Shown here: piece after piece, positions 9,360-32,000 of the stretch
How the letters are laid out: the number at the start of each line of letters is the position of its first letter
Position numbering within the stretch: position 1 is the first letter of the stretch
Source of the DNA: Candidatus Micrarchaeum sp.
Lineage (GTDB): Archaea; Micrarchaeota; Micrarchaeia; Micrarchaeales; Micrarchaeaceae
Assembly (NCBI RefSeq): GCF_016806735.1
Contig: NZ_CP060530.1
Location: forward strand, 840,001 to 872,000
Reading direction: 5' to 3'
Length of the DNA: 32,000 nucleotides
Made by a program: the position numbers and the translations under genes
The notes under the pieces: model-generated
Seen by the model: only the letters and a program-made list of their open reading frames with translations
Database searches by the model: none
Told to the model about the DNA's origin: nothing

Positions 9360-9379
9360 ATGCATTACCAATAATTCAG

Positions 9380-9389
9380 ATTTAAATAG
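9380..9389 (-). promoter_or_regulatory. TATA-like box (CTATTTAAAT on the minus strand) for the cassette A membrane-protein gene
   Basis: Centred about 25 nt upstream of the ATG at 9359, which fits a leaderless transcript. It lies inside the longer ORF-track version of the gene. Confidence 0.35.
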
Positions 9390-9596
9390 CGCGGGCTCTT
9401 TCATCGCCCCAAGCGTATTTAGGCTGCAAACAATACCGTAAGCTTTATGCGCAAAGAAAAATTATATAGGTTTGTCCTTTTTATATAAGCGTATATTATT
9501 CTATAAGTAATTTTTGCTAGTAACATCAGCCATATTTAGAATAGGAGTGTATGTAAGTTTATTATAAATAGCATTCAAAACCACTATTGGATAATA

Positions 9597-9606
9597 ATTT
9601 AAATAT
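9597..9606 (+). promoter_or_regulatory. TATA-like box ATTTAAATAT upstream of the cassette A operon
   Basis: Same 10-mer as at 1171-1180, centred about 34 nt upstream of the ATG at 9635, within a 230-bp AT-rich divergent intergenic region. Confidence 0.35.
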
Positions 9607-9609
9607 CGT

Positions 9610-9623
9610 CCGGAATGTTCCGG
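9610..9623. promoter_or_regulatory. Perfect palindrome CCGGAA-TG-TTCCGG between TATA-like box and start codon
   Basis: 6-bp arms with a 2-nt spacer. It is the only GC-rich element in the AT-rich intergenic region, 12 nt upstream of the ATG at 9635. Candidate operator site. Confidence 0.3.
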
Positions 9624-9634
9624 GGTAATATGCC

Positions 9635-11677: not shown

Positions 11678-12476
11678 CAATTTTATAGTAAGCGATAGGC
11701 CTTACATACTTAGGATATCTGCCCAGAAAGGAGGTGTGGGCAAGACAACCATAGCAGTGAACCTTTCTGTCGCGCTGAAATTGAAAGGCTATTCCGTATT
11801 GTTAGTGGATGCAGACGCGTCGAATCCATCCGTAGGGCTTCATCTTGGGCTCGAAAATTCTACAGGAGGATTCATAGACCTCTTGAAGGGAAAGGCTAAT
11901 TTAGAATATACCGTAATTACGCACGGGCCCACAGGGCTTGCAGTAATATGCAGCCCCATAAGCATGCAGGCCTTCGGAATGAATGAGCATGAAGTGGAAG
12001 TCGCGTACAATACCCTCAAGAAATCGGATTATGACATCGTAATAGTCGACACGCAACCGGGATATTTCCCTGATGTAATAACAAGGAAGATAGACCATAC
12101 GCTTATAGTAACAAATCCGGACATGCCTAGCTACATGAGTGCATTGAGGCTTTCCGAGTATTTTTCTAGCAGGAAAGTCCCAAACATGCTGCTTGTGAAC
12201 AGGGTAAGCAATAAAAAATATGAGATAAACATAAAGGAAATAAGGGAAACCTACGAAGGGGAAATAGCAGCAATAGTGCCTGAAGACGAAATAGTACCTG
12301 TGAGTATAGCCTCCAAGATACCGGCTTTCTTGCTTAGCCCAAAAAACAGGTTCAGCAAAGCGATTTTAGATCTTGCTGAAAAGTTGATAGAGGAATCCGG
12401 AATCCCGAAAGCTGGCGATTCTGCATATATCACAAAAACTGACAAGCATAAGCCAGGCGCAGGCCGCAAAAAATAG
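11664..12476 (+). CDS. MinD/ParA-family (SIMIBI) P-loop ATPase (cassette A)
   Basis: Deviant Walker A 'SAQKGGVGKTT', 'VLLVDAD' and Walker B 'DIVIVDTQPG'. No signal peptide or TM segment. The start overlaps the upstream stop by 14 nt. Paralogue at 25274-26092. Confidence 0.85.
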   Translation: MKSDSNFIVSDRPYILRISAQKGGVGKTTIAVNLSVALKLKGYSVLLVDADASNPSVGLHLGLENSTGGFIDLLKGKANLEYTVITHGPTGLAVICSPISMQAFGMNEHEVEVAYNTLKKSDYDIVIVDTQPGYFPDVITRKIDHTLIVTNPDMPSYMSALRLSEYFSSRKVPNMLLVNRVSNKKYEINIKEIRETYEGEIAAIVPEDEIVPVSIASKIPAFLLSPKNRFSKAILDLAEKLIEESGIPKAGDSAYITKTDKHKPGAGRKK

Positions 12477-12553
12477 AAATATTGCATTTATTGCAAGGAT
12501 CATTGAATTTGTATTTTGCCGTATGCAATTCATGAATATTATGCAAATGGGAG

Positions 12554-17914: not shown

Positions 17915-17930
17915 ATATGGAGTGTGCCAA

Positions 17931-18620
17931 ATGCGATTCTTTGAGTTAATTGCTATTGCAACGCTTTTGGCAGTTTTTTCTTTTTCTATTCTTTCAACTA
18001 CGGCACACGCGCAATTGGGAGAAGTTGCTGGTGAGCCTACATTCTATGTAAACATAAGCGGAACCTACAGCTACAATTACACCTTCATAAACCAGGGATC
18101 AACGCCCATACCTTTTAAGACCATAATAACAAATTTCAGGACTGCAGCAAAAAATGCTACTGCACCGATAGTCACAGCTTCCCCGATGTCTGGCACCATA
18201 CCTCCAAACTCTCAGATCAAAGTAAGAGTAAACATATACCTTCCGTCCAAGAATAATACACCAGGGATGGAATGGCAGGGAGTGCTTGAAGTAGTCGTAA
18301 ATTCTACTTCTAGCAGTACTGGTGGCGCAGTAATAGATGAGGGAGTTGCAAAAGTAGTTACCATAGTGGCAACCGCACCAAAGCCCAATTACACCGCTGA
18401 AATTCTAGTAATACTTGCAATAGCGGTTATTGTCATAGTAGTTGCAGCATTCGCATACATGAAAAGGTCCAAGAAGACGGCAAAAGGCAAGTCACAGATT
18501 TCTGGGGCAAAGGCCAGAGCTACAGTAAAGAAGCCTTCATCCGCAGGCAGGAAGAAAGCATCAAAGAGCAGGAAAAAAGGCACACGCAGGAAGAGGAAAA
18601 ACAGCAGTAATAAAAGATAA
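17931..18620 (+). CDS. Exported beta-rich protein with C-terminal TM anchor and poly-basic cytoplasmic tail (cassette A)
   Basis: The ORF track starts at GTG 17922. The ATG at 17931 (MRFFELIAIATLLAVFSFSILSTTAHA) with GGAG at 17914-17917 is more likely. Beta-rich ectodomain of about 130 aa, TM 'AEILVILAIAVIVIVVAAFAYM', then about 50 aa of K/R-rich tail ('KKASKSRKKGTRRKRKNSSNKR'). Confidence 0.6.
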   Translation: MRFFELIAIATLLAVFSFSILSTTAHAQLGEVAGEPTFYVNISGTYSYNYTFINQGSTPIPFKTIITNFRTAAKNATAPIVTASPMSGTIPPNSQIKVRVNIYLPSKNNTPGMEWQGVLEVVVNSTSSSTGGAVIDEGVAKVVTIVATAPKPNYTAEILVILAIAVIVIVVAAFAYMKRSKKTAKGKSQISGAKARATVKKPSSAGRKKASKSRKKGTRRKRKNSSNKR

Positions 18621-18657
18621 TGCTCACGTTTATATCCCTTCCATGAGAAGATAAATT

Positions 18658-20514
18658 ATGGACTATTTATTCAGGTTTGACAAGCCGAGGCCCAATCAGG
18701 AAGCCATGATAGGCGACGTTTATTCCGCGCTTGAACATAGGCGCGACATATTCATAAACGCGCCGACAGGCATAGGCAAGACCGACGCATCTCTTGGAGC
18801 TGCTCTCACGTTCGCGCTGAAGAACGGGCTTGACGTTTTCTTCCTTACGCCGAAGATATCGCAGCACAAGATAGCGATGGAAGCGGTTTCCGGAATAAAA
18901 AAGAAATTCGGGCTTGATTTCAGCTTTGCAGACATAGTTGGAAAGCGCAACATATGCATAAACGACAAGGTAAACGCCATAGAAAGCGACGCTTTTTACG
19001 GCTCGTGCGAAAGCCTGGTCAAGGCAGGAAAATGCACATATTTCTCGCGATCGAAGAATTTTAGCACAGACGATAAAGGGCTTGCAGATGCCATGGAGAA
19101 CGGGCACAATGCGCTTCTAGACTATTCCTATGGGAAAGGAGTATGCGCTTATGAGATAGCAGCCAAGTACGCGAAGAACTGCAGGGTCATAATAGCAGGG
19201 TATTCGCATTTATTGAATCCTTACAACAGCGGCGCTTTCCTGAAGAAGATAGGGCACAGCATAGACAATGCGATTATAATATGGGACGAGGCGCACAACC
19301 TCATAAACATAGCGAATTCATATTTAAGCACTTCGATATCAGAGCTTGGAATAGATGCGGCCGAAAGGGAATTGAAGGCGATAAACAACAGCATAGATCT
19401 TGATTACCTGAAGTTCGCAATGAAGAAGCTCGCCGCAAAGAAGCTTTCAAAAGGGATGAGCGAGGCCTTGGTTGACAAATCGGACATGTCTGAATTCATG
19501 GAAAGCGAGTATGAAAAATTGATAGATGATCTTGAGAAGGCGGGTCTTGAGTACATACAGGCAAAAAACGCCAAGCGCTCTTCCATACTGCATATAGCAA
19601 GGTTCCTAAGGGGATTCCTTGATGCGGATGAATCCGCCGCGAGGATAATAAAGGCGAGGAACGGGCTCGCAAGGCTCAACGTTAGCTGCTTATACCCCGA
19701 TAGGGCACTGCCGATATTGCAGGAGGCCTATGCAAATGTATTCATGAGCGCCACGATGGAGCCCATGAGGATGTATTCTGATATGTTCAAGGTGGCAAAC
19801 TCTGAGATGAGAAGCTATGCGTCCCCATTCCCAAAGCACAATAAGGCCGCATTCATAGATAATGAGTTTACGACAAAATTCTCACAAAGGTCCAACGAGC
19901 AGTATATGAAGATGGCAAAAAGGATAGAGGAGATAAAGGACAGCGTGCCTGGGAGCGTAGCCGTATTCTTCCCGAGCTTTTCCGTGCTCGAGGGCATATC
20001 AAGGCACGTGAATGTTGCGAAAAAATATGTGCAGAGAAGGGAGATGCAAAGCCAGGCTACAGACGCATTGATGAAGCGCTTTACAGAGGACGACGGCTCG
20101 ATGCTAATGGCAGTCATGGGCGGCAGCTTCAGCGAGGGCATAGATTACAAAAACAACTCGATAAAGGGCATAATCATAGTGGGCATACCGCTAACTGCGC
20201 CTGACCTTGAATTGAAGCTGAGGATTGCATATCTCGACAAGCGCTTTGAAGGCAGGGGAATGGATTACGCTTACATAATACCTGCGATAGTGCGCTCGGT
20301 CCAGGCGGCAGGAAGGGCGGTAAGGAGCGAGAGGGACAGGGCTGTGCTCGTCTTTATGGATAAAAGGTATTCGTGGCGCATGTATATGGCTGCCATATCC
20401 AACAGCATAGAGATCTCGGACTCTAAGGATTACATGAAATCAATAAGGTTCTTCTGGGACTTAAATGATGTAGTAGATAAGGTAGTAAAGGCCAAGCCCG
20501 ATAAGAACTCCTAA
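18658..20514 (+). CDS. xpd: XPD/Rad3-type Fe-S DNA helicase
   Basis: Walker A 'NAPTGIGKT' and DEAH box 'WDEAHN'. Four Cys between them (NIC..GSC..GKC..GVC) fit the XPD 4Fe-4S domain. C-terminal helicase motif 'QAAGRAVRSERD'. Confidence 0.9.
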   Translation: MDYLFRFDKPRPNQEAMIGDVYSALEHRRDIFINAPTGIGKTDASLGAALTFALKNGLDVFFLTPKISQHKIAMEAVSGIKKKFGLDFSFADIVGKRNICINDKVNAIESDAFYGSCESLVKAGKCTYFSRSKNFSTDDKGLADAMENGHNALLDYSYGKGVCAYEIAAKYAKNCRVIIAGYSHLLNPYNSGAFLKKIGHSIDNAIIIWDEAHNLINIANSYLSTSISELGIDAAERELKAINNSIDLDYLKFAMKKLAAKKLSKGMSEALVDKSDMSEFMESEYEKLIDDLEKAGLEYIQAKNAKRSSILHIARFLRGFLDADESAARIIKARNGLARLNVSCLYPDRALPILQEAYANVFMSATMEPMRMYSDMFKVANSEMRSYASPFPKHNKAAFIDNEFTTKFSQRSNEQYMKMAKRIEEIKDSVPGSVAVFFPSFSVLEGISRHVNVAKKYVQRREMQSQATDALMKRFTEDDGSMLMAVMGGSFSEGIDYKNNSIKGIIIVGIPLTAPDLELKLRIAYLDKRFEGRGMDYAYIIPAIVRSVQAAGRAVRSERDRAVLVFMDKRYSWRMYMAAISNSIEISDSKDYMKSIRFFWDLNDVVDKVVKAKPDKNS

Positions 20515-21432
20515 GAACAACGGAGGTATTGCAGGGAGGGCCCTCTTGAATTTTCTAAGTATGAACATTGTTATCATAAGCCCCAGTATTGCTCCGAACA
20601 CTATGAAGAAGCTCGGGACAAAGCTCAATGTAAGCTTGTATGCCGCCACAGCGACCATGAGCGGTATGGCAAGATCCCCTGTGCCCAATGCCACGTTGGC
20701 GGATACCGGCACCATACCGTTTGTATTGGATCTCTTCATTATCGAGAGTATCCTTTTGCCTCTTGAGCCAGATTCCTTGAGCTCCTTGTTGTATTCCCTC
20801 AACTCCTTTTTGCTGAAGCTCGATTTCGGAAGCCCTTCCACCTCGTTCATGTCCACCATGAAGGCCAGATTGTTCTCGGTAACCACATTGGCCAGCGTTA
20901 TCATGTGCTTGGTTATGAACACGGCAACGAAGTCGTATATGGCAAGCAGGCCCATGAAGATAAGCGCTACGAAGAAGCTGAAGCCGAACCCCAGCACCAC
21001 GCCCACTCCGATACTTGCCAATATTGCAGCTACGTTCTTGAGATTCGTCCATTTGTTCTTTGCGACTACAAGAGCTATGGCTATGATCACAGCTCCTGCT
21101 GTCGATATATTTGAGCTTTGCGTAATATACGCGAGGATTATGAAGAATACGTAGAATGATGCTATGAATATTATCACGGCCTCTATTATCCTAAACAGCT
21201 TAGCCCCGTGATAGAACTTGAATACTATGATCATGGCGATTGCTATGACGATTATGTAGCCTATAAGCAGGAATGCGCTTGTCGGGCTGTTTGCGACCTG
21301 TGCGCTTGCGACCTCGGAATAGGTTGCACCGTTAAAATACAACGTGGATATCATGAGCCCTCCGAATTGGACAATCATGAACATTGCTAATATCCCAAGC
21401 AGTTGCCTGTTCTCTATAAGCCTTTTTTCCAA
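20461..21432 (-). CDS. Presenilin / signal-peptide-peptidase-like intramembrane aspartyl protease (A22 family)
   Basis: Polytopic protein with 'LLAIYDFVAVFITKHMITLA' (YD motif), 'ALGTGDLAIP' (GxGD motif) and a C-terminal 'LPAIPP' (PAL-like). TTG start preceded by AGGTG with a 5-nt spacer, only 13 nt after the mcm-fragment stop. Confidence 0.8.
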   Translation of the reverse strand: MEKRLIENRQLLGILAMFMIVQFGGLMISTLYFNGATYSEVASAQVANSPTSAFLLIGYIIVIAIAMIIVFKFYHGAKLFRIIEAVIIFIASFYVFFIILAYITQSSNISTAGAVIIAIALVVAKNKWTNLKNVAAILASIGVGVVLGFGFSFFVALIFMGLLAIYDFVAVFITKHMITLANVVTENNLAFMVDMNEVEGLPKSSFSKKELREYNKELKESGSRGKRILSIMKRSNTNGMVPVSANVALGTGDLAIPLMVAVAAYKLTLSFVPSFFIVFGAILGLMITMFILRKFKRALPAIPPLFLGVLIGLGLYYLIYYII

Positions 21433-21445
21433 ATATACACCTTAG

Positions 21446-22390
21446 TCAATCCGCCTCGTGATGGACAAGCTTTATTATCCCCTGCCTTGGCCTGTATATG
21501 TCGCCAGAGCGCTCAAGCTCCGATAGATATTTGCTTGCGGTTGTGGAGTCTATGCCTGCGGCTTCGGCATCCTCTATCACTTTTTGTATCTTTATGTTGC
21601 TGTCCGACTCCTCAAGCTTCTTTATTATGTTAAGTATTGAATTCATGCGGTCTACCTTCTCCCTCGGCATTCCGGTCAATATCGTATCTATGTCTATGCG
21701 GCCTCCCGTATCCAATGCCAATGACTTAAGCATGAACCTGCTAAGCTCTATTGCAGTCTCAGAATCGGATAATTCAACCACGTCAGAAAGCCTTGACTTC
21801 GCGCTCGCCTCGCTCATCCTCACCAATCCCTCTATCTGCCTCGGGGTTATGGGAACGGCGCCCTGCCTTTGGCCAGTCTTTCTCAAGTCGACATAATATT
21901 TCTGTAAATATTCGCTGGCCTCCTGGCTCAGCCTTGGCGATACGTTCTTGCGTGCATATGCAATGTATTTCCTTAACAAATCCGAGTCTATAGGAGGCTC
22001 TTCGACTTGCTCAAACCCTTTTATGTCAGCAAGCCTTGCGCCTGCCGCCTCATGCTGCATAAGTATGTGCTTTGCTATGTTCCTATCCGTGTCCTCGTCC
22101 ATCACGTCGGTTATTGGGAATATGAGGTCGAACCTTGACAATAGCGTAGGAGGTATGTCGAACTGCTCAGCGGGATACTGGTGGGGATCGAACCTTCCGA
22201 ATTTCGGGTTCGCAGCAGCAAGCACAGCAGCCCTTGCACTGAATGTGGCTATTATACCCGCTTTGGCTACGCTTATGGTCTGCGATTCCAAGGCCTCGTG
22301 AAGCGCGGCCCTGTCGTCCTGGCTTATCTTGTCGAATTCGTCTATGCACACTATGCCGCCACTGCCCAGGACCATGGCTCCTGCCTTCAA
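21446..22390 (-). CDS. mcm: MCM replicative helicase, C-terminal half only (5'-truncated; probable pseudogene or gene remnant)
   Basis: Starts inside the AAA+ core: 'LKAGAMVLGSGGIVCIDEFDK' (Walker B), 'ALHEALESQTISVAKAGI', 'AAANPKFGRF' and the arginine finger 'LSRFDLIF', then a winged-helix-like tail. The N-terminal domain and Walker A are absent. The ORF-track start is a TTG. In-frame MCM-like sequence ('AERDDFSEGGWT') continues upstream to about 22430 and then stops. Confidence 0.8.
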   Translation of the reverse strand: MKAGAMVLGSGGIVCIDEFDKISQDDRAALHEALESQTISVAKAGIIATFSARAAVLAAANPKFGRFDPHQYPAEQFDIPPTLLSRFDLIFPITDVMDEDTDRNIAKHILMQHEAAGARLADIKGFEQVEEPPIDSDLLRKYIAYARKNVSPRLSQEASEYLQKYYVDLRKTGQRQGAVPITPRQIEGLVRMSEASAKSRLSDVVELSDSETAIELSRFMLKSLALDTGGRIDIDTILTGMPREKVDRMNSILNIIKKLEESDSNIKIQKVIEDAEAAGIDSTTASKYLSELERSGDIYRPRQGIIKLVHHEAD

Positions 22391-23175
22391 TGTCCAGCCG
22401 CCCTCGGAGAAATCGTCGCGCTCTGCAACTTGTTTTTCATTTCCTCCTCGAAATCAGTATAACCCCTGTCGAAATGCGCTCCGAGCCTTTCAGGCCCAGA
22501 CAGTATCCTTACATTTTTGACGTTTGATGCGCTGTCATTGAACAATGCGAGCATGTTTTCCATGGCCTTGCTGTCGAAATGCATGTCCAGTATGCTTATG
22601 TCGCCCTTAAGCCTTGCGAAAAAGTCCTTTGACAGCAACAGCATGTTCGAGTATGGGGTTTCCGGATCTATGCTTATGGACCTTAACGAATGGGCCTCCT
22701 GCAACCTGCTCGCTATAGTAATGCCCTTTATGCCTACGTATATGCCCAATGCAACGCCTATGAAAGGCGCCAGGGTTATTATGGGCCCTATGTAGAAGTC
22801 AGCGTCCATCAGGGCAAGCAGCATACCGAATATCAAAGATGAAAAAAGCATCCCTACGCTCAATGTCTTGAGGTTCTGCCTTGTTATGAGCAGCATTGCG
22901 CCTATGCTGAACATTATGAGCGTGAATGGCAGCATAACATATGTTATATGGACAGCTATTGCAAGCGCGGAAGTGCCCTCGAGTGATGTCAATAATGTGT
23001 TTGAAGGGGTTATGTTGTATGTAGTTATAATGGAAGTAATTCCCCTGACCACTCCTACGCTATATGACAGGAACTGCATGTAGTAGAAATTCGAAAGCAT
23101 GGCTATGAATCCTGCGGCGAGCGCAATGTACGCCAACCTTCCATGTGCACTTCGTGATGGTCGCTGAATTTCCAT
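22387..23175 (-). CDS. 3'-truncated paralogue of the cassette membrane protein (cassette B)
   Basis: Collinear with 8385-9359 ('AAGFIAMLSNFYYMQFLSYSVG...ILDMHFDSKAMENML...FDRGYTDFEEEMKNK'). It then diverges into 13 unrelated codons that are out-of-frame mcm sequence before the stop. It lacks about 75 C-terminal residues present in copy A. Start taken as ATG 23175; the ORF track uses TTG 23196. Confidence 0.6.
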   Translation of the reverse strand: MEIQRPSRSAHGRLAYIALAAGFIAMLSNFYYMQFLSYSVGVVRGITSIITTYNITPSNTLLTSLEGTSALAIAVHITYVMLPFTLIMFSIGAMLLITRQNLKTLSVGMLFSSLIFGMLLALMDADFYIGPIITLAPFIGVALGIYVGIKGITIASRLQEAHSLRSISIDPETPYSNMLLLSKDFFARLKGDISILDMHFDSKAMENMLALFNDSASNVKNVRILSGPERLGAHFDRGYTDFEEEMKNKLQSATISPRAAGH

Positions 23176-23207
23176 ATTTATAGTTTTGAAAGGCAAGTAA
23201 TAAAGTT

Positions 23208-23225
23208 CTAATTATTTATAATTAG
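23208..23225. promoter_or_regulatory. 18-bp AT-rich perfect palindrome CTAATTAT-TT-ATAATTAG in the cassette B divergent promoter region
   Basis: 8-bp arms with a 2-nt spacer. It contains TTTATA and its complement TATAAA. It lies 42 nt from ATG 23175 (minus strand) and 50 nt from ATG 23267 (plus strand). Could be a bidirectional TATA element and/or an operator. Confidence 0.3.
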
Positions 23226-23266
23226 ATGAATATGCTTTAGGTATTTGGATGACAAGGTAATAGTAT

Positions 23267-25273
23267 ATGAGAATGTTGGCAGGTTTTATTTTTGTTTTCT
23301 TAATCCTCACCGTATTTTTAGTGTCATACTCTATTGCCGCTTCATATAACAATGCTTCGTTGACAGCTAACGTTGTTGTTGTGCCTGGATGCCCCTTTTC
23401 AATAAGCGCCAACGTGCCTAGAGTTATAGCAGGAGTTGGTAATTTCAATATTAATTACTCGCTAAGCCCAACCGTCAACTGTACCTTGCCCAGCATGTAT
23501 GGGATGTTAAGGCTCTACAATAATAAAAGGATGGTTTATTCCGAGAATCTCAGTGCGAATGTTCCTTCTTCCAACACCATAAGAATAAATACGTCCAGCC
23601 TAAAGGGTGGTCAATATTCTGGAAACCTGAGCTTTGCAAACAACCATACGAGCAATTTCACGAATGTGGATTTCACGGTGCTGAGCGCAGCAAAGCTGGT
23701 AATCTCAAACTTTAGAGTAGTGGGCCCCGTAAACACGGGATCCAATATAAACATGCACCTCATTCTGAAAAGCGAGGGCGATTACGGCGCCGGCAATGTC
23801 ATATTATTCCTTAACCTGACATCGCCCTATATAAAAAACCTAACGATTCCCATAAAAAATATACCGGCCGCCCCGGCTTCTGTAGACATAGCATTACCAT
23901 CGGAAAGCAATCTTGCCTTATACGCCGGCACCTACAAAATCTCGGCTTATGTGGAATATACCGACCCTATGGTAAGCAACAAGACTTATACGACAGCGCC
24001 GTTTAACACTACTTATATTGTAAATGCACCAAGCCACCCATCCAAGCCCGTAAAATTGCCGGCAGTGCCGATACCTAAGATACCCAAGATAACAATAACC
24101 TCTGCGCCTTTGTACATAACAATGAACTCGAATAGCACGATATCAACAAGCATAGGGATTTCTAATCCATCCAACTCAACCGAAACGCTTAATCTAAGCG
24201 TGCCTGGATATATTAGCAATATTGTCAAGCTTTCAACGCACAGCTTAGAACTGACCCCAAATTCCAATATCTCAATTAGCGTGCTAGTTGATGGCAAGAA
24301 CCTAAGCTCTGGAGTATACAACATACCGATAAATGTAAGCGCGACCATAAACAATAAGACAAGCAGCTATACGGATTATGCGACTTTTTCCGTATCCTCA
24401 AGCGGAGTTAATGAGCCAGTAGTTAATACTGCAGTTGAACTGCAAAATAACACAAATGACGGCTATGTGGTAATAAGCATATCTACCCCAAGCAACGTGA
24501 CTATAACCAACGGGACAGCGATAACATACCTGCCGCAGGGGCTTGTACCGAACGAAAGCTACATGGACGCTTACGGCATGCCCAACAACATAACGGAGAG
24601 CGATGGCTATTATTACGTAGAATGGCACATAAGCAAGCTTAAGCCACTGCAAACCGTATACGCGTATATATATGTCAGGAAGCAGGTTAGCCAGCTCCTT
24701 TTTAGCGGCATACATACAGATATATTAGCTCCTTCTGTTACAACACCAAGCATACTGCACTTGCTTTACGTGAATTCTCCATCATTCGAGACATTAGGAA
24801 ACGGGACCACGGTAGTCGAGCTTTTGTACACGGGCGCATACCCCTCTTCCGTAAATCTGGAGCTTACGGGGCCGCCATATATGCATATCTATAACGCATC
24901 GCAAAGCCTGCCTGCCTTGCCTAACCAATTATTGTACGCTTATTTCAAGCAGACTGCCGGGAATACTTCAGGTACCTCGATAGAGAAGCTATTAATAACG
25001 GCCAAGGGGGCGGCGATAAATTATACTGTGCCATTGGTAATAAACAGCAGGCCGGTTAAAATAACCACTACAACTACAATAGCACCCAATATCATAGGCA
25101 CAGCTGCAGAAGCCATAAAGGGCGCAGTGCAAAGGTATTTTATCCTTCTCTTAGTAATAATTATTGCGATAATTATTACAATATCTTATTACAGGTATAT
25201 CAATAAGCCACATTATGACAGGAGCAGGTCGGAGTACATAAAGAGCATGAAAAAACGTATAGGAAAGAAATAA
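23267..25273 (+). CDS. Exported type-I membrane glycoprotein with CARDB/Ig-like domains (cassette B paralogue)
   Basis: 668 aa, with signal peptide, 'SLTANVVVVPGCPFSISANVP', Pro-rich linker 'HPSKPVKLPAVPIPKIPK', C-terminal TM 'YFILLLVIIIAIIITISYY' and a basic tail. The C-terminal two-thirds is highly similar to 9635-11677, for example 'VNTAVELQNNTNDGYVVISISTPSNVTITNGTAITYLPQGLVPNESYMDAYG'. Confidence 0.7.
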   Translation: MRMLAGFIFVFLILTVFLVSYSIAASYNNASLTANVVVVPGCPFSISANVPRVIAGVGNFNINYSLSPTVNCTLPSMYGMLRLYNNKRMVYSENLSANVPSSNTIRINTSSLKGGQYSGNLSFANNHTSNFTNVDFTVLSAAKLVISNFRVVGPVNTGSNINMHLILKSEGDYGAGNVILFLNLTSPYIKNLTIPIKNIPAAPASVDIALPSESNLALYAGTYKISAYVEYTDPMVSNKTYTTAPFNTTYIVNAPSHPSKPVKLPAVPIPKIPKITITSAPLYITMNSNSTISTSIGISNPSNSTETLNLSVPGYISNIVKLSTHSLELTPNSNISISVLVDGKNLSSGVYNIPINVSATINNKTSSYTDYATFSVSSSGVNEPVVNTAVELQNNTNDGYVVISISTPSNVTITNGTAITYLPQGLVPNESYMDAYGMPNNITESDGYYYVEWHISKLKPLQTVYAYIYVRKQVSQLLFSGIHTDILAPSVTTPSILHLLYVNSPSFETLGNGTTVVELLYTGAYPSSVNLELTGPPYMHIYNASQSLPALPNQLLYAYFKQTAGNTSGTSIEKLLITAKGAAINYTVPLVINSRPVKITTTTTIAPNIIGTAAEAIKGAVQRYFILLLVIIIAIIITISYYRYINKPHYDRSRSEYIKSMKKRIGKK

Positions 25274-26092
25274 ATGAAAAAGAATATAATAACACGGAAT
25301 AGCATATCACAACGCACAAACCCGTATATAGTCAGAATATCCGCACAGAAAGGAGGCGTAGGCAAGACCACTGTTGCAGTAAACCTCGCGATAGCTATGA
25401 AGATGCGTGGATATCTGACTTTATTGGTTGATGCTGATACCTCAAATCCAGCGATAGGCATACATTTGGGGCTTGATTATGTCAATGCAGGATTTATTGA
25501 CCATGTGCGTGGAAGGGCAAGCACGGAGAGCGTAGTGGTAACGCATGCACCCAGCGGATTGGCCGTAATATGCGGCTCTATAACCAATGCCGCTTTCATG
25601 CTTACTTATAAAGAGGCAAAGACGAGCTATGACGAACTCAAAAAATCGAGATACGACCTAATAGTTATAGACACGGAACCTGGCTATGTCCATGACGTAG
25701 TTACTGAGGGCATAAATGAAACAATAATAGTAAGCAACCCTGACATGCCAAGTTATATAAGTGCGTTAAGGATATCGGAATATTTCAGCTCCAAGGGCAT
25801 ACTCAACAGCATGGTAGTAAACAGGGTAGCCGGAAAAAGACATGAGATAAGCAGCAGAGAAATAATAGAGAACTTTAACGGTAAGGTTGGATTCCTGCCA
25901 GAGGATGACATAGTACCAATAAGCATAGCTGCTAAGACTCCTGCTGTTATGCTTAACCCGAAAAGCAAGTTTTCAAAGGCAATCGATGAGATAGCAGATG
26001 ATTTATCTTCCCGTATAGGAATGCCGCTTGACAACGATGTGGTTTATGGCTACAAGGCAGGAAAGAAGCGAATTTTTGGTTCAAAGCGATAG
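25274..26092 (+). CDS. MinD/ParA-family (SIMIBI) P-loop ATPase (cassette B)
   Basis: 'SAQKGGVGKTT', 'LLVDAD' and 'DLIVIDTEPG'. The ATG directly abuts the upstream TAA (25271-25273). It aligns without gaps to 11664-12476 by eye. Confidence 0.85.
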   Translation: MKKNIITRNSISQRTNPYIVRISAQKGGVGKTTVAVNLAIAMKMRGYLTLLVDADTSNPAIGIHLGLDYVNAGFIDHVRGRASTESVVVTHAPSGLAVICGSITNAAFMLTYKEAKTSYDELKKSRYDLIVIDTEPGYVHDVVTEGINETIIVSNPDMPSYISALRISEYFSSKGILNSMVVNRVAGKRHEISSREIIENFNGKVGFLPEDDIVPISIAAKTPAVMLNPKSKFSKAIDEIADDLSSRIGMPLDNDVVYGYKAGKKRIFGSKR

Positions 26093-26159
26093 ACTTTAAT
26101 CAATAATCTGCATACAGTGGAATAGTTGATTTTAGCTTTCAAAAAGAGTTGATAATGCA

Positions 26160-29100
26160 ATGGCAGGGAACAAGAAGGAATTGGCCATTATGTGCTTTTG
26201 CATGGCAGTAGTATTGCTTGTTTCCATGGCATATATTGAAACCGCATTTGCGGCCTCTAGTCAGATCCTTTATGGAAACGTAATAACAAGCAATGGCATT
26301 TCCAAAACCGCCGCCACAACCAGGGGCATAACAAATATAGGAATAACCAGCGCGCAGGGTTATGGTTTAAAGAGTAAGCTCGTAGGTTCTTTAACCAGTA
26401 TTTTGAACAAATTATCCCCTAAGGTGAAAAACCGCAGATTGCTAATCTCGGCTGCTTCGAATTTAGAGTATTATAATATAGCATCAAGGGGCATTGGTTA
26501 CAATAAATCGATAAACATATCGATAGCTTATCCGAAAAACATTACAGCATTTATAAGTAACAACCTAATCAATATTTCAATAGCTAATCTTATTATAAAG
26601 CAGAACCTGTCCAGTATGCAGAATGAACATCGGTTAAGCAGCAAGGTAAATTATGTTCCAAAAGGATTGAAAACACCAATATTGATTAATGGAAGCACTT
26701 CATTGATCAATCTTACTGTTAAACTCAACTACAATTATACAAACACCCATACAGTAGTAGCGATAACACATACGCCGCCAAATAACACGAAGCCAATGCC
26801 TAGATCGGCAGCTTATTACTTTCATGTAAACAGCACTATAAGCGACACGCATGTGCAAAACGCCAATTATACATTTGCAGTCAACAGAAGCTGGATAATT
26901 GAAAACAATATAAGCGAGGGCCAAGTATCCCTTTATAAATATGTAAAAGGGTCATGGGTGCAGATGCCAACCATAATGATAGGCAACAATTCAACGGCTT
27001 ATTTTTACGATGGAAGATCTGATTCTCTTTCGACTTACGCCATATCGTATTCTACCGGAAGTGTCACCAGCAGCGCAAACCCGTTGAGTTTGACATTGCC
27101 CACTGGGTATAATCTTTACTTATGCGCAGCAGGAGCAAACTACACATTCGCCAAGAGAAGCCCGATAAGCTGGGTGGCATTGCAGAATGCAAGCGGGCCT
27201 AGCAGTCCTCCTGCTGCTGCTTCTATAGGATATCAAACAAGCAATATATGCAAGGCATCTGTACCGACTAAAAAAAGAAACGATTATTATTTAGGGTTGG
27301 CAATTGCAGGGATGGGCTTGAACCTTACTCATTATTCCTTTTATGGAGCTGCGGCAAACAGCAGCGCCGCTACGACATTGAATTATCCTGTAAATGTTAA
27401 CGGCTCTTTCGTTACAATACTAGTAGCTTCTGGATATTACGGATTGAGTGGACTTCCAACAATACCAAACACGTGTATAACACAGCAGATAACCACAAAT
27501 TCCACAAGTTATGAATCGGCTTATATAGCGACATGTAAAGATGCAGCTCCTGGCAATTACACAGTATCTGCAAGCAATGGCAATTTTGGGGCGACTACCA
27601 TTGAGGCCTTTGTATTCCAGCCAGGAAACGTAATATTTTATGATAATCCACAAGGAGCAGGTTATGTATCGGCAAACAATAAAACTTACAGTAATGGACA
27701 GAGCGCGTTATTATTAGGTAGGGGAGAAATTTCTGCAATTCCAAAAACGAACTTCGTGTTTACCAATTGGACAGTCAGCAGTGCAAATTTGAGCATTGCA
27801 AATGTATATGCGCAGACAACAAACCTTACCGTAATGGGCAATGGAGCAATAACGGCAAGCTATAACGGGATAACAAAATTCGAGGAGAGCGGGCTGCCCT
27901 CAGGTGCGACATGGAGCGCAGTTTATGACGGGATAACAAATACAACAACAGGCAATATGGTATCGTTCGATACGGTTCCCGGAAACCATGCATTCGCCAT
28001 AGAGAACGTAACGTATAATGGAAACACGTACATACCGAAGCCTTCATCGGGAAGTTTGGTTGCAGGAAATGTTACAAGCGTAGCATTCAGTGAGGAAGGA
28101 ATACTTTCTTTGGTTATACAGTCTAACAAGACCGCATATGATACTTCTGATTTGGTTACGGCAACTGCCCCACTGCCTACGCAGGACATAGAGATATTGA
28201 TAGGGAAGGGTTCATTGCCCGGCGTTGAGGTTGCCGATGGAATCGGAAGCGCATCATGCAATCTTTACAGCACGTGCAATGCAAATGCGCCATTGGGTGC
28301 AGGGATTTATAATGTAAGTGCAGAGGTAACCTCAACAGGCAATGTAATCAGCAAGAGCGTTAACATAACAAGGGCAATTCCTAAATTGAGCCTTTCAGTT
28401 CCAAACAGTTATGTGTATGATGGCAATGGAGGAGCTGTAACGTTTAACATATCGACATACAACAATCAATTGGAAGGGCTTCTTAATGTAAACAATGCCA
28501 CAGTTGCGAGCACATATTCCACAAATACATATACTACTTCTTCAAGTGTAGGCAATTACAGCGCATTGTTTTATGATAACGGAAACAACAATTACACGTC
28601 TGTATCAAAATCAGGAAGCTTCTCGATACTCCCGAAGCTTTATACTGTGAACTTTACTGAAAATGCAAGCACAGGCACTACAGGCACATTATCCGTAAGC
28701 GCACCTTCAGGATATAATTTGTATCTTTGTGATGGAGGCGCAGGTAATGCTGGGATAACATATAGCACAGGAACAACTGATGCTTCCGATACATATTCTT
28801 ACATAGGGCACCAGACAGCTAATACATGTACAGAAACTACTACAGGGCCTGATTTAACGGAAGGAATAATAGGCATAAAAGCATCACCAACCTATTCATT
28901 GGCAACAAGCACTGGAACAGCTACAGACAGCTTAACGTATAACGTAACAAAAAATGACTCGTTCGTTGCGATAATGATCTCTTCGGGATATTTTGGCTTA
29001 TCCTCGGCACCCGTGATACCAAGCGGATGTACGGAAAAGGCATATATTACTGGAGGGGATACCTATGAATCCGCATATATAGCGATATGCCAATCCCAAA

Positions 29101-31565
29101 TAAAGGGTCAATATTCAATAAGTGCATCTTCTTCCTCGGGAGGTTATATAACAATTGGCGCATATGTGTTTCCGCCATATTCATTGACATTGGATGACAA
29201 CCCAGCGGCTGGCACCATAACCACCGATGGGAAAACATTCTCGAATGGAGAAACCACCAACGTAATAGGCACAGGAACAATAACGGCAAACCCTCCGAAT
29301 AACTTCGTGTTTACTAATTGGACAATCAGCAGTGCAAATTTGAGCATTGCAAATGTATATGCGCAGACAACAAACCTTACCGTAATGGGCAATGGAGCAA
29401 TAACGGCAAGCTATAACGGGATAACAAAATTCGAGGAGAGCGGGCTGCCCTCAGGTGCGACATGGAGCGCAGTTTATGACGGGATAACAAATACAACAAC
29501 AGGCAATATGGTATCGTTCGATACGGTTCCCGGAAACCATGCATTCGCCATAGAGAACGTAACGTATAATGGAAACACGTACATACCGAAGCCTTCATCG
29601 GGAAGTTTGGTTGCAGGAAATGTTACAAGCGTAGCATTCAGTGAGGAAGGAATACTTTCTTTGGTTATACAGTCTAACAAGACCGCATATGATACTTCTG
29701 ATTTGGTTACGGCAACTGCCCCACTGCCTACGCAGGACATAGAGATATTGATAGGGAAGGGTTCATTGCCCGGCGTTGAGGTTGCCGATGGAATCGGAAG
29801 CGCATCATGCAATCTTTACAGCACGTGCAATGCAAATGCGCCATTGGGTGCAGGGATTTATAATGTAAGTGCAGAGGTAACCTCAACAGGCAATGTAATC
29901 AGCAAGAGCGTTAACATAACAAGGGCAATTCCTAAATTGAGCCTTTCAGTTCCAAACAGTTATGTGTATGATGGCAATGGAGGAGCTGTAACGTTTAACA
30001 TATCGACATACAACAATCAATTGGAAGGGCTTCTTAATGTAAACAATGCCACAGTTGCGAGCACATATTCCACAAATACATATACTACTTCTTCAAGTGT
30101 AGGCAATTACAGCGCATTGTTTTATGATAACGGAAACAACAATTACACGTCTGTATCAAAATCAGGAAGCTTCTCGATACTCCCGAAGCTTTATACTGTG
30201 AACTTTACTGAAAATGCAAGCACAGGCACTACAGGCACATTATCCGTAAGCGCACCTTCAGGATATAATTTGTATCTTTGTGATGGAGGCGCAGGTAATG
30301 CTGGGATAACATATAGCACAGGAACAACTGATGCTTCCGATACATATTCTTACATAGGGCACCAGACAGCTAATACATGTACAGAAACTACTACAGGGCC
30401 TGATTTAACGGAAGGAATAATAGGCATAAAAGCATCACCAACCTATTCATTGGCAACAAGCACTGGAACAGCTACAGACAGCTTAACGTATAACGTAACA
30501 AAAAATGACTCGTTCGTTGCGATAATGATCTCTTCGGGATATTTTGGCTTATCCTCGGCACCCGTGATACCAAGCGGATGTACGGAAAAGGCATATATTA
30601 CTGGAGGGGATACCTATGAATCCGCATATATAGCGATATGCCAATCCCAAATAAAGGGTCAATATTCAATAAGTGCATCTTCTTCCTCGGGAGGTTATAT
30701 AACAATTGGCGCATATGTGTTTCCGCCATATTCATTGACATTGGATGACAACCCAGCGGCTGGCACCATAACCACCGATGGGAAAACATTCTCGAATGGA
30801 GAAACCACCAACGTAATAGGCACAGGAACAATAACGGCAAACCCTCCGAATAACTTCGTGTTTACTAATTGGACAATCAGCAGTGCAAATTTGAGCATTG
30901 CAAATGTATATGCGCAGACAACAAACCTTACCGTAATGGGCAATGGAGCAATAACGGCAAGCTATAACGGGATAACAAAATTCGAGGAGAGCGGGCTGCC
31001 TGCGGGGACGGTTTGGAACATAACATACGATAGCATAAGGAATTCGAGTAATGGCAACATGATAAGCTTTGACACTGTGCCAGGAAGCCATGCCTTTAGC
31101 GTAGGCAATGTAATGATAAACGGATATAATTATACGCCAACTACGTATTCTGGAAGCGTAGTAGCAGGAAATACTACGTCCATAATATTTAAGCCCCCAA
31201 TATGCACCATATCGCTCAGCTCCAATTCAGTATCGTTTGGATCTTTAGGGCCTGATAGCACATATCCAGATAATGTAATGGTAACAGACTATAACAAAGG
31301 AAGCGCAGAGGCGCATGTTTTTGTATCTGGGACTAACTGGACATACGGATCTAATAATGCATTCGGATTCGGCGTATCAAATACGACATGGAGCAGTAGT
31401 GCGTTGGCAATATATGGAGGCAAGGTGTTGGAAAAGACAGCCTTCAATACTTCCATAGCAGTATTGCAGAATGGCTCAAGCCCAGTATACTTCGGGCTCA
31501 GCGTGCCGGGAGCAATACCTGCAGGGACATACACACAGAGAATAACGATAACAAACAGCTGTTAA
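26160..31565 (+). CDS. Giant secreted repeat glycoprotein / putative adhesin (1,801 aa, cassette B)
   Basis: Same architecture as 12554-17914: signal peptide, PGF-pre-PGF-like segment (about 26814-27053), three super-repeats and a 123-aa Cys-bracketed C-terminal module ('PPICTISL...VPGAIPAGTYTQRITITNSC'). No TM anchor. Confidence 0.8.
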   Translation: MAGNKKELAIMCFCMAVVLLVSMAYIETAFAASSQILYGNVITSNGISKTAATTRGITNIGITSAQGYGLKSKLVGSLTSILNKLSPKVKNRRLLISAASNLEYYNIASRGIGYNKSINISIAYPKNITAFISNNLINISIANLIIKQNLSSMQNEHRLSSKVNYVPKGLKTPILINGSTSLINLTVKLNYNYTNTHTVVAITHTPPNNTKPMPRSAAYYFHVNSTISDTHVQNANYTFAVNRSWIIENNISEGQVSLYKYVKGSWVQMPTIMIGNNSTAYFYDGRSDSLSTYAISYSTGSVTSSANPLSLTLPTGYNLYLCAAGANYTFAKRSPISWVALQNASGPSSPPAAASIGYQTSNICKASVPTKKRNDYYLGLAIAGMGLNLTHYSFYGAAANSSAATTLNYPVNVNGSFVTILVASGYYGLSGLPTIPNTCITQQITTNSTSYESAYIATCKDAAPGNYTVSASNGNFGATTIEAFVFQPGNVIFYDNPQGAGYVSANNKTYSNGQSALLLGRGEISAIPKTNFVFTNWTVSSANLSIANVYAQTTNLTVMGNGAITASYNGITKFEESGLPSGATWSAVYDGITNTTTGNMVSFDTVPGNHAFAIENVTYNGNTYIPKPSSGSLVAGNVTSVAFSEEGILSLVIQSNKTAYDTSDLVTATAPLPTQDIEILIGKGSLPGVEVADGIGSASCNLYSTCNANAPLGAGIYNVSAEVTSTGNVISKSVNITRAIPKLSLSVPNSYVYDGNGGAVTFNISTYNNQLEGLLNVNNATVASTYSTNTYTTSSSVGNYSALFYDNGNNNYTSVSKSGSFSILPKLYTVNFTENASTGTTGTLSVSAPSGYNLYLCDGGAGNAGITYSTGTTDASDTYSYIGHQTANTCTETTTGPDLTEGIIGIKASPTYSLATSTGTATDSLTYNVTKNDSFVAIMISSGYFGLSSAPVIPSGCTEKAYITGGDTYESAYIAICQSQIKGQYSISASSSSGGYITIGAYVFPPYSLTLDDNPAAGTITTDGKTFSNGETTNVIGTGTITANPPNNFVFTNWTISSANLSIANVYAQTTNLTVMGNGAITASYNGITKFEESGLPSGATWSAVYDGITNTTTGNMVSFDTVPGNHAFAIENVTYNGNTYIPKPSSGSLVAGNVTSVAFSEEGILSLVIQSNKTAYDTSDLVTATAPLPTQDIEILIGKGSLPGVEVADGIGSASCNLYSTCNANAPLGAGIYNVSAEVTSTGNVISKSVNITRAIPKLSLSVPNSYVYDGNGGAVTFNISTYNNQLEGLLNVNNATVASTYSTNTYTTSSSVGNYSALFYDNGNNNYTSVSKSGSFSILPKLYTVNFTENASTGTTGTLSVSAPSGYNLYLCDGGAGNAGITYSTGTTDASDTYSYIGHQTANTCTETTTGPDLTEGIIGIKASPTYSLATSTGTATDSLTYNVTKNDSFVAIMISSGYFGLSSAPVIPSGCTEKAYITGGDTYESAYIAICQSQIKGQYSISASSSSGGYITIGAYVFPPYSLTLDDNPAAGTITTDGKTFSNGETTNVIGTGTITANPPNNFVFTNWTISSANLSIANVYAQTTNLTVMGNGAITASYNGITKFEESGLPAGTVWNITYDSIRNSSNGNMISFDTVPGSHAFSVGNVMINGYNYTPTTYSGSVVAGNTTSIIFKPPICTISLSSNSVSFGSLGPDSTYPDNVMVTDYNKGSAEAHVFVSGTNWTYGSNNAFGFGVSNTTWSSSALAIYGGKVLEKTAFNTSIAVLQNGSSPVYFGLSVPGAIPAGTYTQRITITNSC
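27775..31000 (+). repeat. Base-perfect in-frame tandem duplication, 1551-bp unit, about 2.08 copies (giant gene B)
   Basis: 27775-29449 matches 29326-31000 at every line I compared. The last mismatch before the block is 27774 vs 29325, and the first after it is 29450 vs 31001. The ORF track shows four pairs of identical antisense ORFs offset by exactly 1551 bp. Confidence 0.9.
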
Positions 31566-31576
31566 GAGTAGGCAGG

Positions 31577-31581
31577 TTTTT
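31577..31581 (+). terminator. Short oligo-T tract after giant gene B
   Basis: TTTTT 12 nt after the TAA at 31563-31565. It is weak, and the next ORF starts 39 nt later, so at most partial termination. Confidence 0.2.
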
Positions 31582-31619
31582 AAGCTTTATTAATAAAAGA
31601 ATATTCGGAAGGTGATTTA

Positions 31620-32000
31620 TTGGATATATTAAAGAGAAATTTAAAGGCATCGCTCGCGATTCTAGCAAGCTTACTAATTATGAGCGGCACCATAGCATTG
31701 GCATTGGGAAACGTGGCTTTTGCAAGCTCATCGAATACAGTTACAGCAAATGTTGCTGTCGAAGGGGTGTGCTACATAAGCCTAAGCCCTAATGCGATAT
31801 CGTTTGGTAGCTTATACCCTACGGCAACGCATGCTGACAATGTTTTGGTAACTGATAGCGACCCGTACGGAAATGTGGCGGCCAATGTATTAGTATCAGG
31901 TACTGATTGGGCAAGTTCAACTTACAACTTTGGTGTATCTAATACCACATGGAGCGCTACATCGTCAAACACGTTCTTAACTACAACTCAGCTTACAAAT
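31620..32000 (+). CDS. Small exported protein, free-standing paralogue of the giant proteins' C-terminal module (partial, runs off the window)
   Basis: Absent from the ORF track because it has no stop inside the window. TTG start 4 nt after GGTGA (31611-31615). Hand translation: LDILKRNLKASLAILASLLIMSGTIALALGNVAFASSSNTVTANVAVEGVCYISLSPNAISFGSLYPTATHADNVLVTDSDPYGNVAANVLVSGTDWASSTYNFGVSNTTWSATSSNTF... It parallels 'PPICTISLSSNSVSFGSLGPDSTYPDNVMVTDYNKGSAEAHVFVSGTNWT...FGVSNTTWSS'. Confidence 0.6.
   Translation, partial: MDILKRNLKASLAILASLLIMSGTIALALGNVAFASSSNTVTANVAVEGVCYISLSPNAISFGSLYPTATHADNVLVTDSDPYGNVAANVLVSGTDWASSTYNFGVSNTTWSATSSNTFLTTTQLTN

Follow-up and report, generated by a model that had tools for sequence, protein, structure and literature searches.

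A second copy of a putative cell-envelope cassette in the chromosome of 'Candidatus Micrarchaeum harzensis' A_DKE, probably imported by homeologous recombination

Gene content of the locus

The 32,000-nucleotide stretch analysed here (the window) belongs to the closed chromosome of 'Ca. Micrarchaeum harzensis A_DKE', with locus tags of the series Micr_009xx. It carries two cassettes of putative cell-envelope genes, termed A and B, each comprising a divergently transcribed membrane protein (mem), an anchored protein of 680 or 668 amino acids (aa) termed gp, a MinD/ParA-type ATPase and a giant secreted protein, followed by small accessory genes. Homologous loci in public assemblies fall into two haplotypes, called alpha and beta. 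Cassette A is of the alpha type, and cassette B is most likely the product of import, together with the block on which it lies, from a distantly related lineage. The features of the locus are as follows (aa, amino acids; nt, nucleotides; TM, transmembrane).

8385..9404, minus strand: A_mem (Micr_00908), intact, about five TM helices and a cytoplasmic PLD-fold (MITD1-like) domain
9635..11677, plus strand: A_gp (Micr_00909, 680 aa), signal peptide, about six Ig-like beta-sandwich domains, Thr-rich linker, TM helix and basic cytoplasmic tail; 31 N-X-S/T sequons
11664..12476, plus strand: A ATPase (270 aa), MinD/ParA-type, deviant Walker A motif KGGVGKT
12554..17914, plus strand: giant A (1786 aa), composed of a signal peptide, an N-terminal domain that includes PGF-pre-PGF, and the modules X1-Y1-X2-Y2-X3-Y3; it has no membrane anchor and its last residues are ...IENSC
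17931..18620, plus strand: 229-aa anchored Ig-like protein (Micr_00912) with a Lys/Arg-rich cytoplasmic tail
18658..20514, plus strand: xpd copy 1 (QRF74377), a hybrid whose 5' part of about 280 nt is of the resident alpha type and the rest of the imported beta type
18940..18971, no strand: crossover S, 32 nt identical in both lineages
20461..21432, minus strand: presenilin/signal-peptide-peptidase (SPP) gene copy 1, beta type (QRF74378)
21446..22430, minus strand: mcm remnant, beta type, the C-terminal 327 codons, truncated in the P-loop domain
22430..22431, no strand: junction J, an illegitimate out-of-frame join of 5'-truncated mcm to 3'-truncated B_mem
22387..23196, minus strand: B_mem' (Micr_00916, annotated as 262 aa), A_mem-like as far as ...EEEMKNK, then 13 out-of-frame mcm codons and a stop
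23267..25273, plus strand: B_gp (Micr_00917, 668 aa), intact, 28 sequons
25274..26092, plus strand: B ATPase (Micr_00918, 272 aa), MinD/ParA-type
26160..31565, plus strand: giant B (Micr_00919, 1801 aa), architecture as in giant A, with X3 an exact copy of X2
31620..32000, plus strand: beginning of the 177-aa gene (Micr_00920), which is cut by the end of the window and encodes a small secreted protein paralogous to the C-terminal domain of the giants

The open reading frames (ORFs) listed in an earlier note on this DNA, made from the sequence alone, were all found in place. That note had also regarded the membrane partner of cassette B as damaged, and B_mem' is indeed a true truncation, with 262 aa as compared with 302-340 aa in all homologs. 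Missing from it is the ELRVM...HERLIID half of the PLD-fold domain, and the protein is probably non-functional. The ORFs of cassette B are otherwise intact, and its promoter region is rich in AT and has a TATA-like box. A homolog of the 229-aa protein, the 239-aa Micr_00921, is located 3' of cassette B, outside the window. The gp and ATPase genes overlap by 14 nt in cassette A (11664-11677), and in cassette B the stop codon of the former is exactly adjacent to the ATG of the latter (25273-25274); in both cassettes the two genes look translationally coupled. The convergent xpd and SPP genes share 54 nt at their 3' ends (20461-20514), as they do on alpha contigs (59-60 nt in contig L007).

Homology and divergence of the two cassettes

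The two cassettes (window 8385-17914 and 22387-32000) are collinear homologs in the same orientation. In blastp comparisons, the membrane proteins share 61% aa identity over 241 aa (E 9e-110), the gp proteins 52% over 669 aa (E 0), the ATPases 54% over 251 aa (E 2e-103), and the giants 64% over 1765 aa (E 0), and at the DNA level the cassettes give collinear blastn matches at 64-71% identity. The gene-for-gene homology proposed in the earlier note is thus borne out, with protein identities of 52-64%. The similarity is long, ordered and far above chance. It is not of low complexity, the case that the note had named as fatal to its proposal; the alignments are collinear, with E from 2e-103 to 0.

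The divergence is unevenly distributed along the proteins. As had been claimed, the N-terminal parts are the most diverged: residues 1-250 of gp are 32-46% identical between the cassettes, and residues 1-180 of the giants 20-40%, as compared with 62-84% over most of the remainder. Conservation had been claimed for the C-terminal part of gp and for the ATPases. This holds for the former (58-90% identity over residues 297-600) but not for the latter, which at 53-54% aa identity and with the highest dN are no better conserved than gp. Likewise, the giant segment in which a quarter of positions had been estimated to differ is 68% identical, so that about one third of them do.

At synonymous sites, the cassette genes are saturated, with proportions of synonymous differences (pS, Nei-Gojobori) of 0.60-0.77 between A and B. 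The alpha and beta versions of three neighbouring genes are equally saturated by the same measure, the encoded proteins sharing 81% (XPD), 76% (SPP) and 92% (MCM) aa identity. The ratio of nonsynonymous to synonymous divergence (dN/dS) is about 0.10-0.17 in the cassette genes versus about 0.05 in XPD and MCM, and was not computable for SPP. Because synonymous sites are saturated in the cassette genes, xpd, SPP and mcm alike, A and B are best regarded as homeologs from two lineages and not as a local duplicate that has diverged.

Repeats within the giants and loss of a small 3' gene

Both giants are built of an N-terminal domain followed by X1, Y1, X2, Y2, X3 and Y3, and an InlB-type B-repeat opens each Y. 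A repeat search and offset identity confirmed that the two genes have the same internal period of 1551 nt, as the earlier note had proposed. Two stretches stand out.

14081..16509, plus strand: giant A, near-identical 878-nt block repeated at +1551 (95% identity, 383 nt exact)
27775..31000, plus strand: giant B, perfect tandem repeat, with 1,675 nt (27775-29449) exact at +1551, about 2.08 units

The description of the repeats as identical or nearly so therefore applies to part of each unit, namely these blocks, but not to the other modules, which share 33-56% aa identity. Homogenisation has acted within the genes and not between them, as had been suggested: Y1 and Y2 are 96% identical in A and 100% in B, whereas the Y cores of A and B are 73% identical to each other. 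Similarly, B_X3 is 100% identical to B_X2, and A_X3 56% identical to A_X2. Between the cassettes, X1 shares 67% aa identity and X2 74%. Since X1, X2 and the Y cores are thus positionally orthologous, the three-module layout is older than the split between A and B, and the repeats were homogenised separately in each lineage. The lack of concerted evolution between the two giants is accounted for mainly by their separate histories and recent juxtaposition.

The size of the giants varies from assembly to assembly (1269, 1786 and about 3337 aa for A, 1286 and 1801 aa for B), and some of the differences in module number represent repeat collapse. Polishing of repeats with short reads could also overstate the exact identity of those in giant B. 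In the 2017 draft of the same organism (L010 10933-20813, GCA_002204695.1 MWKQ01000001.1), giant A has three extra 1551-nt modules, bringing it to about 3337 aa, which reflects either real instability of copy number or an assembly error.

The giant gene and the 176/177-aa gene that follows it have near-identical 3' ends of about 90 nt (window 17835-17935; L009 16100-16880), and both proteins end in ...PAGTYTQ.I.I.NSC. At this repeat, the 176-aa gene was deleted in cassette A of A_DKE and in L007, and contig L002 skips likewise after giant B. The earlier note had credited cassette B with a different downstream gene. The difference exists, but it is caused by the loss of the 176-aa gene after giant A and is no novelty of B.

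Mosaic structure of the locus

The A_DKE genome was assembled with HGAP3 from PacBio reads, with Illumina polishing, from a two-member co-culture with a Thermoplasmatales host (PMC8975820). The genome paper is silent on a duplication, on adhesins and on MinD (PMC8975820).

Comparison with other contigs divides the window into two parts. Positions 1664-18939, which take in cassette A, the gene for the 229-aa protein and some 280 nt at the start of xpd, are 100% identical to alpha contig L007, whereas positions 18972-22430 are 100% identical to beta contigs L001, L015 and L016 and only about 72-89% identical to alpha. The switch from alpha to beta lies inside the 32-nt identity at 18940-18971 (crossover S). 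With alpha sequence on its left and beta sequence on its right, the xpd gene of the window is a hybrid. Contig L016, which starts at 18936, has the alpha-specific base at 18939 and continues as beta sequence.

The second discontinuity, J, joins mcm to B_mem with at most 2-3 nt of possible microhomology. It is spanned by contig L002, while L015 and L016 stop exactly at 22430 and L003 and L004 begin at 22398 and 22401, respectively; alpha mcm has no shared 25-mer at J. Together, the spanning contig, the four contigs that end or start there and the absence of an alpha 25-mer make J a real branch point of beta mcm, from which that gene continues in two ways.

These observations bear on the possibility that the locus is an assembly chimera of co-occurring alpha and beta strains, joined at short shared sequences, with one cassette per cell. 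Several points speak for it. S is only 32 nt long; contig L007, from a metagenome-assembled genome (MAG), runs from alpha to alpha through xpd with identical flanks; 'potentially misassembled' contigs were removed according to the methods of the genome paper (PMC8975820); the 2017 draft (L010) and the closed genome disagree on the number of repeats in giant A; and J and S are missing from the JGI contigs. On the other side, HGAP assembles long reads by their overlaps and would not be misled by an identity of 32 nt, and in L016 beta sequence follows the alpha-specific base 18939. J connects the unrelated mcm and mem genes, which share at most 3 nt there, and it recurs in independent short-read assemblies from several runs. 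Furthermore, no second genome, of the beta type, is visible: across the whole protein collection, beta versions exist for island genes only. An assembly chimera is thus unlikely.

Beyond position 32,000, the gene order was obtained from exact protein look-ups and accession order. The proteins of the locus are numbered as follows.

QRF74375: giant A
QRF74376: 229-aa protein
QRF74381-74383: cassette B (gp, ATPase, giant B)
QRF74384: 177-aa protein
QRF74385: 239-aa protein
QRF74386: second XPD, 3' of cassette B, identical to the pure-beta XPD of L015
QRF74387: second beta-type SPP, identical to QRF74378
Two genes between QRF74387 and QRF74390: inferred MCM and MetRS
QRF74390 onward: h224, OTCase, FtsZ, Rce1-like and SpoU, exactly identical to alpha proteins

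The offset between accession and locus tag is constant at six anchor points, and so exactly two genes lie between SPP copy 2 and h224. The xpd copies of A_DKE are identical downstream of S. The exact alpha versions of XPD, SPP, MCM and MetRS are not found in the closed A_DKE genome and are present in the ARMAN-1 and AZ1 MAGs; the exact A_gp protein is present also in an ARMAN-1 MAG. The island thus delimited consists of about 19-20 kb of beta DNA inside an alpha-type chromosome, its right end being bracketed between SPP copy 2 and Micr_00926, and the beta DNA is partly duplicated in tandem, the period being 14,264 nt.

The right end was followed in metRS. Contig L020, whose flanks match A_DKE at 100%, encodes a MetRS (L020 8225-9886) with a single substitution (G387D) relative to the common alpha MetRS, with which it was compared in L021, L022 and L023. 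Both of these alpha versions are absent from the closed genome, so that the metRS of A_DKE is a third version and possibly carries the right crossover of the island. The tail of L001 was examined for a beta-to-alpha crossover in mcm copy 2 and proved to be a third variant with no clean switch.

This structure recasts the genes between the cassettes. The earlier note had described two paralogs of one genome separated by unrelated spacers, namely xpd, a protease gene and an mcm remnant. In fact, these genes belong to the repeated unit: a second xpd (QRF74386) and an identical SPP gene (QRF74387) follow cassette B, the xpd of the window is hybrid, and the mcm remnant marks the duplication junction. 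The layout is that of a tandem duplication, with direct multi-gene copies, a junction that fuses the truncated end of one unit to the truncated start of the next, and xpd and SPP each present twice. However, the uniform divergence expected of copies made within a genome is not seen, as the xpd-3' and SPP copies are identical, whereas the cassettes are 53-64% identical at the aa level with saturated pS, and cassette A together with the 5' end of xpd matches strains without B at 100%.

A single event could be considered to account for xpd copy 1 as a hybrid, for J and for the arrangement in direct repeats. This is Campbell-type integration, in which a beta circle of about 14.3 kb, closed at J, enters the alpha chromosome through one crossover at S. 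Such an event predicts an xpd copy 2 with a beta 5' part and an alpha 3' part, followed by alpha SPP, the alpha 5' half of mcm and alpha metRS. By contrast, the second copies of xpd and SPP are beta, that of xpd purely so; MCM chimeras constructed with an alpha N-terminus and a beta C-terminus are not on record, and the alpha MetRS variants are not in the genome. As the reciprocal hybrids are missing, circle integration as the sole event was rejected. Its rescue needs an additional long conversion tract, and we regard this course of events as improbable.

Distribution of the two haplotypes

The exact ATPase of cassette A is found on many public contigs. On the long alpha contigs, the gene order is Lon-like protease, A_mem, gp, ATPase, giant A, (176-aa protein), 229-aa protein, XPD (620 aa), SPP, MCM (687 aa) and MetRS; these contigs have no second cassette, and their mcm is intact. 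The exact ATPase of cassette B is found on six short contigs only. The beta haplotype is represented by L001, with cassette B, the 177-aa gene, the 239-aa gene, XPD (618 aa), SPP and MCM. The alpha and beta gene orders define an ancestral unit of six genes and conserved neighbours. A distant Micrarchaeote keeps the order gp-ATPase-giant, and another species shows synteny for mem-gp-ATPase.

B_gp shares 52-54% identity with each protein of the A-type clade, whose own identities to A are 98, 76, 72 and 58%, and B_mem is 60-66% identical to all homologs. The 90% cluster of beta-type XPD contains two A_DKE proteins only, and B-type proteins were found nowhere else among 5.8 billion clusters. Since B_gp and B_mem are equidistant from the A types and beta-type XPD is unique to A_DKE, cassette B and its flanks would derive from a lineage that split off before the known diversification of Micrarchaeum, and by the sequences at hand this donor lineage appears otherwise unsampled. 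In the same searches, cluster-mates at 90% identity or more and closer homologs of Micrarchaeum proteins were encountered that had been deposited as proteins of 'Candidatus Marsarchaeota archaeon' or 'Methanothrix sp.' MAGs; these labels probably reflect mis-binned or mislabelled public MAG contigs.

The distribution argues against divergence of A and B in place, which the earlier note had assumed. In its fullest form, this explanation supposes an ancient tandem duplication, loss of B from the single-cassette strains, and later gene conversion that rendered xpd and SPP identical. The copies are certainly direct, collinear and adjacent, with a classic junction of truncated right-end and left-end genes, and gene conversion is clearly active inside the giants at this very locus. 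Nevertheless, all other sampled strains and species have one cassette and an intact mcm, the other Micrarchaeum strains in a survey of copy number, such as the earlier note had suggested, carrying cassette A only. The B-type proteins lack a close relative, being absent elsewhere among the clusters searched. The alpha xpd, SPP and mcm genes have been replaced in A_DKE by sequences as diverged as B, with equally saturated pS; identity with alpha strains drops abruptly from 100% to about 78% inside xpd; and metRS also differs from alpha, which conversion between repeats cannot explain. Ancient duplication in place is accordingly given little credence.

Delivery of the cassette by a mobile genetic element (provirus, plasmid or integrative element) would be in keeping with a block that forms an island of foreign DNA. 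Genes for mcm and surface proteins are also frequent cargo of integrated elements in archaea. However, no integrase, transposase or viral hallmark ORF was found in the 18.9-32.0 kb interval (the 32-40 kb part being known by protein names only), and no tRNA or att-like target. The gp protein has no relative in 2.9 million viral contigs, there were no matches to defence or mobile-element genes, and the island is gene-for-gene syntenic with the chromosomal locus of other strains. This makes a mobile element the least credible source. A search for known RNA families at the locus likewise gave no match.

Origin of cassette B

We thus consider it probable that cassette B is a homeolog (xenolog) of A, carried on a beta block of about 19-20 kb in an alpha chromosome, and that the cassettes are envelope modules. 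Two events are needed, the illegitimate join J and a homologous exchange with its left crossover at S. In a first step, illegitimate recombination would have produced a tandem duplication, either in the beta lineage or in an intermediate recombinant. In a second step, a segment spanning J would have been imported by a double crossover, on the left in xpd and on the right in mcm/metRS. As an outcome, the resident xpd-3', SPP and mcm would have been replaced, cassette A left untouched, and cassette B added alongside. Beyond SPP copy 2, an intact mcm would follow, with a return to alpha in or just after metRS.

Several points weigh against this import. For its second half, the structure is drawn from exact-protein look-ups and the order of accessions, and the right boundary is only bracketed. 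At 32 nt, S has a length at which k-mer assemblers can form chimeras. The hybrid xpd join and J both gave zero matches in JGI metagenome contigs, so that all support comes from data of the A_DKE lineage. The MAG with 100% identical flanks (L007/L020) runs from alpha to alpha through xpd; either an island-free sister strain coexists, or one of the assemblies is mis-threaded. The duplication may have come before or after the import. As to the envelope modules, the structure models are of moderate confidence (pLDDT 63 and 66), the Ig-like matches are generic, and the roles of the ATPase and in host attachment are ones that we only infer.

Protein architecture and putative function

The AlphaFold model of gp (pLDDT 66) is a chain of about six Ig-like beta-sandwiches, in a protein with a signal peptide, a C-terminal TM helix and a basic tail. 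The giants, which NCBI names 'PGF-pre-PGF domain protein', combine a signal peptide, a PGF-pre-PGF domain (46 bits, cut-off 28), three Flg_new_2 (InlB-type B-) repeats and 60-68 sequons with the absence of an anchor. No PGF-CTERM signal was found in them, as there is no C-terminal PGF motif, TM helix or hydrophobic tail and the proteins end in ...NSC. The 176/177-aa proteins are secreted copies of the C-terminal domain of the giants, and the 229/239-aa proteins are Ig-like, carry an anchor and have long Lys/Arg tails.

The ATPases carry SAQKGGVGKTT in both copies and score above threshold for AAA_31 (63/55 bits versus 27) and CbiA (59/54.5 versus 25.4). They remain below the NCBIfam cut-offs for MinD (TIGR01969, 120.8/101.8 versus 201.75 bits; TIGR01968, 83.8/73.9 versus 212.9).

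For the cytoplasmic domain of the membrane protein, the nearest Foldseek matches are MITD1, BJ-TSA-9 (FAM83), PLD and Zucchini (E 1e-4 to 1e-2, TM-score 0.46-0.55 on the target). The catalytic HxK(x)4D motif was not found in this protein, and an HERLIID motif (HxRxxxD) is conserved in 13 full-length homologs instead; only the fold is PLD-like. Sequence relatives of the domain (A_mem residues ~197-339) occur at the C-terminus of STAND/AAA NTPases of 800-1700 aa and of a GmrSD_N-containing protein (P0283-P0346). Architectures of the STAND/AAA and GmrSD_N types are typical of conflict systems. PADLOC gave no match for mem, gp, the giant or the 229-aa protein, and only weak P-loop matches for the ATPase.

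On these sequence features and models, each cassette may be viewed as a cell-envelope module for MinD-organised surface display or attachment. In this module, gp would form a membrane-anchored, heavily N-glycosylatable stalk of Ig-like domains, and the giant would be a secreted multi-module protein with its most variable domain at the N-terminus. The diverged N-terminal parts would be the distal, ligand-facing regions. The ATPase would probably position or organise the assembly via the basic cytoplasmic tails, and the divergently transcribed 5-TM protein with a non-catalytic PLD-fold domain and the two small accessory surface proteins would complete the module. A system for host attachment or cell-cell contact is plausible in an ectosymbiont. 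A_DKE would then display two specificities, and B would depend on A_mem or go without that partner. The suggestion of the earlier note that the two variants have diversified in function, with different ligands or hosts, or take part in expression switching may be kept as a conjecture. The main S-layer protein of this organism, SLP_Mh, is the 101-kDa product of Micr_00292 (bioRxiv 10.1101/2021.04.28.441871) and, as the cassette genes are Micr_00908-00921, is by locus tag encoded outside the cassette.

Two neighbours of the cassettes are worth recording. A 614-aa protein (window 6425-8269, minus strand), encoded directly upstream of A_mem, has a signal peptide, a Lon_C (S16) protease domain without an ATPase domain, a Ser/Thr/Pro-rich linker and a C-terminal TM helix, and appears to be an extracellular anchored Lon-like protease. 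It is syntenic in alpha strains and in L017, has no copy accompanying cassette B, and gives a weak BrxL-like PADLOC match. In addition, three genes of the FtsZ family lie within about 45 kb of the locus, one to the left of the cassettes and two to the right of the island (window 115-1167; L020 2658-4759).

Relation to known systems

Exchange of surface loci between related lineages is exemplified by the switching of capsule and O-antigen loci in bacteria, by mosaic genomes and recombination between species in archaea of acid mine drainage such as Ferroplasma, and by homology-facilitated illegitimate recombination. As in these cases, a divergent allele would have entered by crossovers in conserved flanking housekeeping genes (xpd on the left, mcm/metRS on the right), and one illegitimate junction lies beside a homologous anchor. 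The difference is that the import in A_DKE was additive, the resident cassette being kept and the incoming block partly duplicated in tandem. A_DKE is, moreover, a DPANN archaeon with an unsampled donor, and it has been left with two homeologous cassettes, with xpd and the protease gene each in two copies, and with an mcm pseudogene.

Positioning ATPases of the MinD/ParA family act on envelope machines, examples being archaeal MinD4, FlhG, TadZ/CpaE and BcsQ. The cassette ATPases resemble them in the KGGVGKT motif, in matching the Pfam families AAA_31, CbiA and ParA above threshold, in having archaeal MinD as their best relatives in the PDB, and in being encoded, like TadZ, BcsQ and FlhG, inside an operon of envelope proteins. 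They differ from characterised MinD in falling below the cut-offs for MinD proper (121 and 102 versus 201.75 bits) and in having partners unlike known MinD clients.

The giants share both domain types with archaeal PGF-pre-PGF/InlB B-repeat surface proteins, but they lack PGF-CTERM, and their X modules, Y cores and C-terminal domain match no family. The membrane protein differs from MITD1, FAM83 and PLD in its HERLIID motif and in the fusion of the domain to five TM helices. Among DPANN symbionts, giant surface proteins are also represented by the SPEARE proteins of Nanohaloarchaeum antarcticus. Likened by description only, the giants resemble SPEARE as very large secreted multi-domain proteins of a host-dependent nano-archaeon and as candidates for host contact; they differ in their modular 1551-nt repeats and in belonging to a conserved six-gene cassette with a MinD-like ATPase.

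Significance

For annotation, the locus calls for caution, since one event yielded, as by-products, the mcm fragment and the second copies of xpd and of the protease gene, which are not independent features. Recombinational import of a surface-protein locus is a known process, and what is new here is its additive outcome and the uncharacterised, lineage-restricted cassette.

Micrarchaeota, which belong to DPANN, need physical contact with their Thermoplasmatales hosts. A_DKE is a cultivated model and the only cultivated Micrarchaeon, in which this locus offers two accessible candidate surface modules. A bolder and rather doubtful proposal is that the six-gene cassette, made up of the 5TM-PLD-fold protein, the Ig-chain anchor, the MinD-like ATPase, the giant modular secreted protein, the small C-domain paralog and the basic-tailed Ig protein, is a Micrarchaeota-specific, MinD-organised host-attachment apparatus not recognised before, whose specificity versions are swapped between deeply diverged DPANN lineages by homeologous recombination, and that A_DKE has recently stacked two of them. 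Read as a clean and datable import of about 20 kb from an unsampled lineage through a 32-nt crossover, the locus would indicate that homeologous recombination can add whole surface-protein operons, beyond replacing them, in the reduced genome of a symbiont.

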